A DNA stretch of 64,000 bases, from NCBI GenBank assembly GCA_049287205.1, contig JBAQFJ010000001.1, positions 943,653 through 1,007,652 on the forward strand. Direction: 5' to 3'. Each line of letters starts with the position of its first letter. Position 1 is the stretch's first letter. The stretch is from Microgenomates group bacterium (GTDB taxonomy: Bacteria > Patescibacteriota > Microgenomatia > UBA10105 > UBA927). A model generated the notes under the pieces. It ran no database searches and had not been told where the DNA came from. It saw only the letters and a list, made by a program, of their open reading frames with translations. The position numbers and the translations under genes were made by a program. This document shows positions 45,685-47,310 of the stretch, one piece after another.

Positions 45685-46292
45685 AATTTTCGTTGCTATA
45701 GTGAGGTAGACAAACCTCTCTTTTATTCCCCGTGCAAAAGGAAGGCGGGATAAAAGAAAAATTGTGCTAAATGCTGGAAACTCTGAGTATCTTGTGCTAC
45801 TATGTGTTATATGACACATAGTGAAAAAGCATCAAGTGCAGACAATCAGCAGGAAAGATTGGATCCGTGGTGGATTGTAGGATTTGTTGATGGAGAAGGA
45901 TGTTTTTCCGTTAGTACGTTTAAAAATTCAACTTGTTCAAGTGGGTTTCAAACTCTTTATGAGTTTGTGGTCACACAAGGAGAAACGAGTAAACGAGCTA
46001 TGGAAGCAATCAAAACTTATTTTGGTTGCGGAGCGATTTATATAAATCGCAGACATGATAACCATCATCACGATCTTTTACGATATTGTGTACGAAAGCA
46101 GGAAGATTTGAAAACAAAAATCATCCCGTTTTTCAGAAAATATCCATTACAATCTGCAAAACAAGAACAATTTGAGACATTTTGTCAAAAATTGTTTGAT
46201 CCAAAATCCTCAACGACTATACGCACAACTCGGTAAAACGAGAAGATATAGTCTGATCTTCATGGCGACATGAAGTTAACAAATTTTTATGA
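45685..46292 (+). other. Group I intron in 23S domain IV, after GGTA and before GCGAAATTCC (E. coli ~1931 site), carrying a LAGLIDADG ORF
   Basis: The exon sequence is interrupted between ...AACTGTTCTATGGTA and GCGAAATTCCTTGTCGGG. Boundaries are accurate to within 1-2 nt. Confidence 0.7.
45802..46236 (+). CDS. LAGLIDADG homing endonuclease (single-motif, I-CreI-like), intron-encoded
   Basis: VGFVDGEGCF motif. Located inside the 23S intron. Confidence 0.8.
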   Translation: MCYMTHSEKASSADNQQERLDPWWIVGFVDGEGCFSVSTFKNSTCSSGFQTLYEFVVTQGETSKRAMEAIKTYFGCGAIYINRRHDNHHHDLLRYCVRKQEDLKTKIIPFFRKYPLQSAKQEQFETFCQKLFDPKSSTTIRTTR

Positions 46293-46948
46293 GCGAAATT
46301 CCTTGTCGGGCAAGTTCCGACCCGCACGAAAGGTAGAATGACATAGTGACTGTCTTAAACTGTTACCCGGCGAAATTGAAATGGCTGTGAAGATGCGGCC
46401 TACTCACACATGGACAAAAAGACCCCATGAAGCTTTACTGCAATTTGGCACTGAAGAGTTTATTTTAACTGTCGAGTATAGGTGGGAGCCTTCGGGCGAA
46501 CAATGGAATACCACTCTTTAAAATGAATGAATCTTACTTACTCCTACATAAAAATCTAGGAGCAGGACACTGTCTGATGGGCAGTTTAACTGGGGAGGTT
46601 GCCTCCAAAAGTGTAACGGAGGCGTGCAAAGGTTGGCTAATCCTGAATGGAAACCAGGACGTGTCGTGCAAACGCGATAAGCCAGCTTGACTGCGAGACG
46701 TACATGTCGAGCAGATGCGAAAGCAGGCGTTAGTGATCCTCGATACCCTCGTGGGAGGGTTCGGGCTTAACGGATAAAAGCTACTCTGGGGATAACAGGC
46801 TGATCGCTTCCGAGAGTCCATATCGACGAGGCGGTTTGGCACCTCGATGTCGGCTCATCCTATCCTGGGGCTGTAGAAGGTCCCAAGGGTCCGGCTGTTC
46901 GCCGGTTAAAAGGGTACGCGAGCTGGGTTCAGAACGTCGTGAGACAGT

Positions 46949-47310
46949 AGACCTTAGTGGAATAGACGCCACTATAACGAGCTGTCCATCCTTTACCGTT
47001 CTAGAATCTTTGTATATCGAGAAATTTTAAAGGATCCCGCAAAACAATACTAATTATATTGAATGCGGGAATAAATCTGACTAATTGCTGGAAACACTCA
47101 GTATCTAATACTACTTTTAAAAAAAGTAACAATGTATTAGTGGAGTCAATCAGCAGGGAAGGCCCCGCCTTGGCGGGGAACCCTCAGAGACTATATGTCA
47201 GATCTGGCTTCGCCAGAAAGATATAGTCCGAACTGTATGGCGACATACAGACTGCAGCAGAAATGCGTGCAGAGTCGTTTTTACATCAAAAAACGATATT
47301 AACATTATTG
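46949..47310 (+). other. ORF-less group I intron in 23S domain V, inserted after GAGACAGT and before TCGGTC (E. coli 2593 / I-CreI-type site)
   Basis: The exon resumes with TCGGTCTCTATCC...CTAGTACGAGAGGACCG. The intron ends in G. It shares an AAGATATAGTC...ATGGCGACAT core-like block with intron 1. Confidence 0.7.

Follow-up and report, generated by a model that had tools for sequence, protein, structure and literature searches.

Introduction

In the survey of candidate phyla radiation (CPR) ribosomal RNA (rRNA) genes by Tsurumaki et al. (2024), insertions were found in 82% of 23S genes and 45% of these insertions were classed as group I by Rfam, while the LAGLIDADG_1 family predominated at 23S positions 1917, 1931, 1952, 2593, 2604, and 2657 (PMC11270868). 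Insertions at a given site were described both with and without an open reading frame (ORF), their flanks being closely similar, and CPR rRNA insertions were stated, with citation of earlier work, to be removed from the transcripts (PMC11270868). Here, we analyzed a stretch of 64,000 nucleotides (nt) from a Microgenomates group bacterium (contig JBAQFJ010000001.1, positions 943,653 to 1,007,652 of the forward strand), referred to as a whole as the window, in which the 23S rRNA gene is interrupted by two inserts. These were located after U1931 and U2604 in the numbering of Escherichia coli, and are named intron 1 (site L1931) and intron 2 (site L2604).

For intron 1, close counterparts have been described in both CPR and other bacteria. 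The CPR site 23IS7, which corresponds to position 1931 as the numbering of the survey is read, is occupied by insertions encoding I-ShaI and I-KazI, and I-ShaI has been found to cleave its own insertion site and to dimerize (PMC11270868). These insertions share with intron 1 the phylum-level hosts, the site, group-I-like flanks, and a single-domain LAGLIDADG_1 ORF. Compared by description, the I-ShaI insertion is 691 nt long with an ORF of 522 nt, whereas intron 1 is 608 nt long with an ORF of 435 nt that lacks about 30 C-terminal residues. L1931 introns with single-motif enzymes of 143-167 amino acids (aa) were also reported in Simkania, Thermotoga, and Synechococcus, as well as in organelles, and bacterial rDNA intron ORFs that run into the core have been described (Haugen et al., 2007; PMC1995217). 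The introns of Simkania negevensis, Thermotoga spp., Synechococcus spp., and green-algal and amoebal organelles resemble intron 1 in their site, a single-motif LAGLIDADG enzyme, an ORF extending from a peripheral loop into the core, and an IC1-like P7, and the Simkania enzyme, at 143 aa, is similarly short as the 144-aa protein of the window (PMC1995217). However, the L1931 introns of Haugen et al. were described without a P2, whereas intron 1 includes both P2 and P2.1 (PMC1995217). In addition, the Simkania intron was reported as unspliced in the title of Everett et al. (1999), a reference cited in PMC11270868, and the protein of Thermotoga neapolitana showed a maturase-like activity (PMC3984707).

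For intron 2, the closest counterpart is the CPR insertion at position 2604, which shares its site and group I type and is known in both ORF-bearing and ORF-less forms (PMC11270868). We read the order of the list in that paper as equating 23IS13 with position 2604, although this is not stated there outright. The window contains the ORF-less form with a clade-specific extra hairpin between P10 and P1, and L2604 introns were also observed in this study in metagenome-assembled genomes (MAGs) outside the CPR. A full-text literature search for 'L2604' with 'group I intron' returned nothing. The Cr.LSU intron of the Chlamydomonas chloroplast, which encodes I-CreI, and bacterial introns at L2593 lie in the same, conserved stretch of domain V and are also of group I with a single-motif LAGLIDADG enzyme. 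Intron 2 differs from them by its position at 2604, by the absence of an ORF, and by the absence of the P7.1/P7.2 extension described for L2593 introns (PMC1995217), with P7 and P3' only 3 nt apart. Two group I introns in a single 23S gene are also present in Coxiella burnetii, where the L1951 intron carries a LAGLIDADG gene (PMC1995217, and the title of Raghavan et al., 2007). The Coxiella introns, however, occupy other sites and flank a 34-bp exon, while those of the window are separated by 657 nt of exon.

Two group I introns in one 23S rRNA gene

The two inserts are interpreted as group I introns with related IC1-like cores, of which the L1931 intron is mobile and carries a LAGLIDADG_1 gene, and the L2604 intron is immobile and ORF-less. 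A probability of about 0.88 is assigned to this reading, which draws on the insertion sites, the secondary structures and their covariation, the protein family, and the presence and absence of the introns in relatives. P1 through P10, the guide, a terminal omega-G, and covariation were identified in both inserts, in agreement with a previous sequence-only reading of this DNA that had described two group I introns in the 23S, one with and one without a LAGLIDADG ORF. The label IC1-like is based on the similarity of their P7-P3' region to that of the Tetrahymena intron and on the L1931 description of Haugen et al., rather than on subgroup-specific models.

The 23S rRNA gene including both introns spans positions 43688-47597 of the forward strand, as identified by a single Rfam hit (RF02541, 2163 bits) that covers the model from 1 to 2925. 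It consists of three exons at 43688-45683, 46292-46948, and 47311-47597. In the alignment to the large subunit (LSU) model, an insert of approximately 611 nt was placed after ...CUAUAACUGUUCUA(UGGU), followed by a second insert further on. Removal of both inserts yields a 23S of 2940 nt, compared to 2903 nt for the E. coli copy used, and no further indel above 34 nt was found in the alignment of the spliced gene to E. coli. Related loci were collected by a search of the intron 1 protein against species-representative genomes, which gave 80 loci; these and further related loci are denoted by three-digit handles (such as L082), as distinct from the four-digit site names.

Insertion sites and exact boundaries

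Sites were numbered by an alignment to the fetched E. coli 23S gene, in which landmark motifs were located. Relative to the standard numbering, this copy lacks one base within 1936-2596, and the shift was corrected via the known positions of m5U1939 and A2602. The exon sequence breaks at ...CTATGGT(A) / (A)GCGAAATTCC for insert 1 and at ...GAGACAGT / TCGGTC for insert 2; the clean breaks and the insert lengths of 608 and 362 nt that had been described are borne out by the sequence.

The boundary of insert 1, which follows GGU1931, is ambiguous by one A. The placement 45684-46291 was adopted since it alone leaves a U before the insert and a G at its end, consistent with the rules for group I introns, whereas the coordinates 45685-46292 given in the sequence-only reading would have the insert end in A. 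Insert 1 is located between U1931 and A1932 in domain IV, so its assignment to the 1931 site was correct. Insert 2 is unambiguous and is located between U2604 and U2605 (GAGACAGU | UCGGUC) in domain V. Its previous assignment to the I-CreI-type site at 2593 is replaced by a site 11 nt further downstream: an L2593 intron would break the exon between U2593 and C2594, but the exon here is uninterrupted through ...AACGUCGUGAGACAGU and the insert begins after U2604. Genuine L2593 introns were found in the relatives L084 and L085, where they break at ...GAACGU|AAAUC. A2602, a neighbor of the 2604 site, belongs to the peptidyl-transferase loop. The expected ligated exon junctions are ...CUAUGGU|AGCGAAAUU (1931/1932) and ...GAGACAGU|UCGGUCUC (2604/2605). 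While both sites had been regarded as classic insertion sites of organelles, this description applies to 1931 but not to 2604, for which the CPR survey was the only source found (PMC11270868).

Structure of the L1931 intron and its endonuclease gene

Intron 1 (45684-46291, forward strand) begins with AAAUUUU and ends with ...UUUAUG, placing the omega-G at 46291. Its structure was established from a manual P1-P10 model, in which each pair was checked, and from covariation, in place of a partial match to the Rfam group I model. In the base-by-base model, the P1 and P10 region spans 45677-45701. P1 (7 bp) pairs the exon segment CUAUGGU (45677-45683) with the guide GCUAUAG (45695-45701), with a U1931-G pair at the splice site, and P10 (7 bp) pairs UUUCGUU (45688-45694) with AGCGAAA of the 3' exon (46292-46298). 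The 5' core (45762-45865), identified from the model and covariation, includes the 5' strands of P3 (45762-45767) and P4 (45772-45777), the P5/P5a/P5b segment (45782-45842), P4' (45846-45851), and the 5' strands of P6 and P6a (45852-45865). The 3' core, located within 46198-46275 and recovered by Rfam, the model, and covariation, comprises P6a'/P6' (46198-46209), the 5' strand of P7 (46215-46219), P3' (46223-46228), P8 (46229-46242), J8/7 with the 3' strand of P7 (46243-46253), and P9 (46258-46275), which ends in a GCGA tetraloop. Additionally, P2 and P2.1 are included in the model, and P7 contains a bulged C.

The P6/P6a loop of intron 1 houses the body of an ORF (45802-46236, forward strand; 435 nt, 144 aa), which has its ATG in the P5b hairpin and its TAA stop in the loop of P8. 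The predicted protein matches Pfam LAGLIDADG_1 (PF00961) with an E-value of 3.5e-23 and 82.9 bits, against a cut-off of 23.1, as one domain over residues 25-129. It also matches each half of two-domain enzymes with known structures from the I-OnuI and I-SmaMI families (PDB; E-values of 1e-32 to 1e-35). Its motif, IVGFVDGEG, aligns to the GEG/AEG motif of these enzymes and retains the acidic residue E32. The identification of a 144-aa LAGLIDADG protein with the sequence VGFVDGEGCF in a 608-nt insert was therefore confirmed.

A total of 4620 homologues were found in the database, the best 120 of which are 67-97% identical to the protein and 123-172 aa long. Among the matches listed, homologues start at the equivalent ATG in P5b and continue with ADNQQERL through P5'-P4'-P6. 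Since ADNQQERL spans these RNA helices, part of the apparent N-terminal protein conservation is conservation of the RNA. The endonuclease clade of the window, which comprises the window, L082, and L002-L006, lacks about 30 C-terminal residues that are found in other L1931 enzymes; this short form nonetheless has many well-conserved homologues of 123-150 aa.

Intron 1 belongs to the widespread L1931 lineage. In the proposed mechanism, P1 would pair the 5' exon to the guide, P10 would align the 3' exon, and intron 1 would excise itself through two guanosine-initiated transesterifications. By analogy to I-ShaI, the intron 1 protein is predicted to act as an endonuclease, a homodimer that would cut intron-less 23S genes at 1931, and repair of the cut would copy the intron into them (homing).

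Structure of the L2604 intron

Intron 2 is a group I intron of 362 nt (46949-47310, forward strand) with its omega-G at 47310. It scored 77.2 bits against RF00028 (46993-47250), above the gathering score of 50. Its minimum free energy (MFE) is -122.3 kcal/mol (z of -6.64), and the MFE fold recovers most of the modeled helices. No Pfam match was obtained for its longest two open frames, of 55 and 73 aa, in line with the previous description of a 362-nt insert that ends in G and lacks an ORF.

The P1 and P10 region of intron 2 (46943-46986) was identified by the model, covariation, and the MFE fold. P1 (6 bp) pairs the exon segment GACAGU (46943-46948) with the guide GCUGUC (46981-46986), both of which are unchanged in all 14 L2604 introns compared, and P10 (5 bp) pairs AGACC (46949-46953) with GGUCU of the 3' exon (47313-47317). 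Between the P10 and P1 strands lies an extra 6-bp hairpin (46955-46974), which among L2604 introns was found only in the window, L082, and L083; the L2604 intron of L073 has a different insertion at this place. The core of intron 2 (within 47075-47250), supported by Rfam, the model, and covariation, includes P3 (47075-47081/47197-47203), P4 (47086-47091/47150-47155), P5/P5a/P5b, a P6 hairpin of 28 nt (47156-47183), P7 (47189-47193/47224-47228), P8 (47204-47216), and P9 (47233-47250), which has a GCGA loop. Two peripheral hairpins, P9.1 (47252-47272) and P9.2 (47275-47296), were identified by the model, covariation, and the MFE fold, and every pair counted in them covaries.

Covariation and an independently assembled relative

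A homologous ORF was found in an insert at the 1931 exon junction in 66 of the 80 loci. The 2604 junction was also occupied in 13 of the 80. Besides intron 2, 13 L2604 introns align over the whole core.

For 27 aligned L1931 introns, 88.0% of the cells were paired in the modeled helices, compared to 36-43% in controls slid by 1-3 columns, and 50 pairs had changed on both sides; none of 500 shuffles reached the observed values. A similar result was obtained for 14 L2604 introns with their ORFs trimmed, where 87.8% of the cells were paired, compared to 34-39% when slid, and 49 pairs had changed on both sides. Both structures come from the sequence of the window and are thereby somewhat favored in the slid control, while the number of double changes is large regardless. 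Changes on both sides were observed in P3, P5, P6a, P7, P8, and P9. In the L1931 alignment, P3, P4, and P6 were 100% paired, and P6a, which brackets the ORF, was 95.7% paired with all seven of its pairs covarying. One pair of P1 covaries with an exon base, being A-U in 17 sequences and U-A in nine. P10 is weakly conserved across both families (60-73% paired). The group I core that had been expected to be foldable in both inserts was thus recovered, with the helices from P3 to P7 checked base by base and supported by covariation.

Further evidence was provided by L082, a metagenome contig of 6.3 kb that was reached via a protein 97% identical to that of intron 1 (P0001) and aligns to the window over 4.4 kb. 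The intron 1 ORF itself had no exact match in the contig index. This independently assembled contig contains both introns at the same junctions. Its identity to the window is 98.0-99.8% in the exons, 95.7% in intron 1, and 89.5% in intron 2, and many of the differences in intron 2 occur as matched pairs (47096/47146, 47099/47143, 47106/47139, 47107/47138, 47163/47178, 47166/47175, 47167/47174, and 47047/47059). The presence of both introns with paired changes in L082 rules out an assembly artefact and indicates that the fold is under selection in this lineage.

Relation of the two introns

Both inserts contain the block AAGATATAGTC...ATGGCGACAT, from which related cores had been proposed. The block is present, but it is generic and uninformative on its own: AAGATATAGTC corresponds to the consensus of the Rfam group I model (J8/7 and the 3' strand of P7), and the rest of the block is largely the P9 hairpin that is conserved in both lineages. 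The relationship is instead indicated by the cores as a whole, which have an identity of approximately 75% between P3 and P9 and align with a score of 96, compared to 0.2 +/- 9.9 for shuffled sequences.

L2604 introns of 727-792 nt with a LAGLIDADG frame of their own, always in P6, were found in 11 loci, while the ORF-less L2604 introns were those of the window, L082, L083, and L021. The intron 2 of the window most likely lost its endonuclease gene, in accordance with one of the histories that had been suggested for it, with the direction of the ORF change judged from its relatives. Loss is the simpler history because an ORF is present in the intron of L005 (Levyibacteriota), which has its P2/P2.1 periphery in common with the intron of the window. 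Following such a loss, intron 2 would be a splicing-competent yet immobile copy that is vertically inherited.

Intron content of relatives

RadA, the gene of which is located at 51321-52628, has an identity of 100% to a protein from a MAG of a Microgenomates group bacterium, followed among named relatives by Gottesmanbacteria, and the closest named 23S locus is that of a Patescibacteria MAG with an identity of 92%. Intron content varied among syntenic relatives. For example, L084 (RadA identity of 89%; positions 3980-8390) lacks introns at L1931 and L2604 but has one at L1917 and one at L2593, each of which carries a LAGLIDADG gene, while L085 (85%; 4740-8433) contains an L2593 intron only. 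In L083 (96%; 1-800), an ORF-less L2604 allele and the 3' end of an L2593 intron are linked in one scaffold by a stretch of N, and two alleles evidently coexisted in the sample. The differing intron content of these relatives represents a rapid turnover, as expected from a homing cycle of gain and loss.

Among approximately 68 readable 23S genes, about 16 had an intron at 2604 only, 12 at 2593 only, and none at both, where about 2.8 would be expected if the two were independent. This is suggestive at most, but L2593 and L2604 introns, being 11 nt apart, may exclude each other. The 2604 point lies inside the stretch of about 22 bp (~2586-2607) that is recognized by I-CreI-type L2593 endonucleases, and with an intron inserted there, the final three base pairs of this target would be replaced. 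It is conceivable, though doubtful, that the ORF-less L2604 intron is kept because it protects the rDNA from competing endonucleases, as L2593 introns whose endonuclease genes are intact circulate in L084 and L085. As a smaller possibility, the intron 1 protein may also serve as a maturase on both of the related cores.

Outside the CPR, LAGLIDADG-bearing introns at both L1931 and L2604 were also found within the same 23S gene, in MAGs labeled as Acidimicrobiia, Actinomycetota, and Acidobacteria. The non-CPR loci with both introns were L063, L057, L068, L035, L040, L044, L058, L072, L073, and L079. Some of these are located on contigs of 1-3 Mb with ordinary 16S-23S-5S operons, and the 23S gene of L063 spans 5.3 kb. 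In the library consulted, no relevant paper was obtained on rRNA introns of MAGs from Acidimicrobiia.

Alternative interpretations

Several observations weigh against the interpretation of the inserts as two spliced group I introns of which one is mobile and the other has lost its ORF. Intron 1 scored 37.5 bits against RF00028 (E-value of 1.6e-07), with a match to the 3' core only, and did not reach the gathering score, so the Rfam check proposed for the two inserts was passed by intron 2 but not by intron 1; under an E-value threshold, the scan of 45600-47400 also gave a spurious 5' alignment for intron 1. The start of the ORF is ambiguous between ATG 45802, ATG 45811, and the in-frame TTG 45859, which would give a form of 125 aa, and nuclease activity of the C-terminally shorter product, as judged from its sequence, is not guaranteed. 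The splicing of both introns is predicted from their structures, and a precedent for an unspliced intron exists at site 1931 itself. Finally, the data fit histories of loss and of absence from the start alike for the ORF of intron 2. The low Rfam score likely results from the 333-nt ORF body in P6, which breaks the alignment to the model: the introns with an ORF in P6 at the other loci scanned (L005, L035, L063, and L002) are also below the gathering score, while the ORF-less L2604 introns of L082 and L021 pass it. Retention of one or both inserts in the mature 23S, as for the L1931 intron of S. negevensis (Everett et al., 1999, 'An unspliced group I intron in 23S rRNA...', known here by its title as cited in PMC11270868 and listed in PMC1995217), appears very unlikely, as P1, P10, the guide, the guanosine pocket of P7, and the terminal G are kept and covary, which would be unexpected without selection for catalysis, and CPR rRNA insertions have been stated to leave the transcripts (PMC11270868). 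From what is generally understood of the ribosome, an insert of 362 nt beside A2602 in the peptidyl-transferase loop is also unlikely to be tolerated. Short insertions other than introns do occur at other CPR 23S sites (PMC11270868), and the inserts might accordingly be intervening sequences (IVSs) processed by RNase III that fragment the 23S, or else assembly artefacts. This explanation is effectively refuted by the full group I cores in both inserts, in domains IV and V, by the same two inserts at the same junctions in L082, and by the identity of the sites, as 1931 and 2604 are group I hot spots and RNase III-cleaved IVSs have been attributed to 23IS2 and 23IS4 (PMC11270868).

The history of intron 2 allows for two further alternatives. 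It had been proposed that the LAGLIDADG enzyme encoded in intron 1 may mobilize intron 2 in trans, in favor of which are the related cores and a tblastn search of L2604-type endonucleases against the window, where only the ORF of intron 1 was matched and no second LAGLIDADG gene was found. This proposal is highly improbable, since homing specificity resides in the DNA target rather than in the intron core, and a comparison of the 28-bp targets at the 1931 and 2604 sites gave 7/28 identical bases in either orientation, which is the level expected by chance. Moreover, L2604 introns elsewhere have a separate LAGLIDADG lineage, four members of which were compared and are 36-46% identical to the intron 1 protein, and each 23S hot spot tends to have its own protein family or lineage (PMC11270868). 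A possible, though less likely, alternative to the loss of the ORF is that intron 2 never had one, being an ancestral ORF-less L2604 ribozyme, and that an endonuclease gene invaded other lineages later. This would be consistent with the clean 28-nt hairpin of P6, which contains no ORF remnant, and with the ORF-less introns of L021, L082, and L083. In contrast, ORF-bearing L2604 introns are the majority (11/14 aligned, or 11/15 with L083), occur in several phyla, and always have the ORF in P6, and L005 bears an ORF despite its shared periphery with the intron of the window. A loss of the endonuclease gene is hence retained as the most likely history of intron 2.

Genomic context

Upstream of the 23S gene and the 5S rRNA gene that follows it (47760-47876, forward strand), only a glutamate dehydrogenase gene and, close to the start of the 23S, a tRNA-Ala(TGC) gene (43311-43384, forward strand) were found. 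The 16S rRNA gene is absent from the whole 64-kb window, and is hence unlinked from the 23S-5S pair in this genome. A scan for promoters and terminators around the rRNA operon was uninformative, as its counts were close to, or at most slightly above, those expected from shuffled sequences. Elsewhere in the window, an ATP-dependent DNA ligase is encoded at 24799-26520 (NCBIfam TIGR00574, E-value of 2.8e-111), which is of a type linked by NCBIfam to archaeal and eukaryotic Lig1-like enzymes and is located here in a bacterial genome.

Implications

Every element of this finding has a published counterpart, including the sites, the type of enzyme, and the coexistence of ORF-bearing and ORF-less forms (Tsurumaki et al., 2024), and the current understanding of these introns is unchanged. 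The practical consequences are modest. Annotation pipelines and rRNA surveys must splice the inserts out, or the 23S genes of CPR bacteria will be mis-sized or appear fragmented. As ORF-bearing introns miss the gathering threshold, intron counts based on RF00028 are underestimates. Within a single narrow clade, the syntenic comparison provides a clear local case of intron gain and loss at the neighboring hot spots 1917/1931 and 2593/2604.

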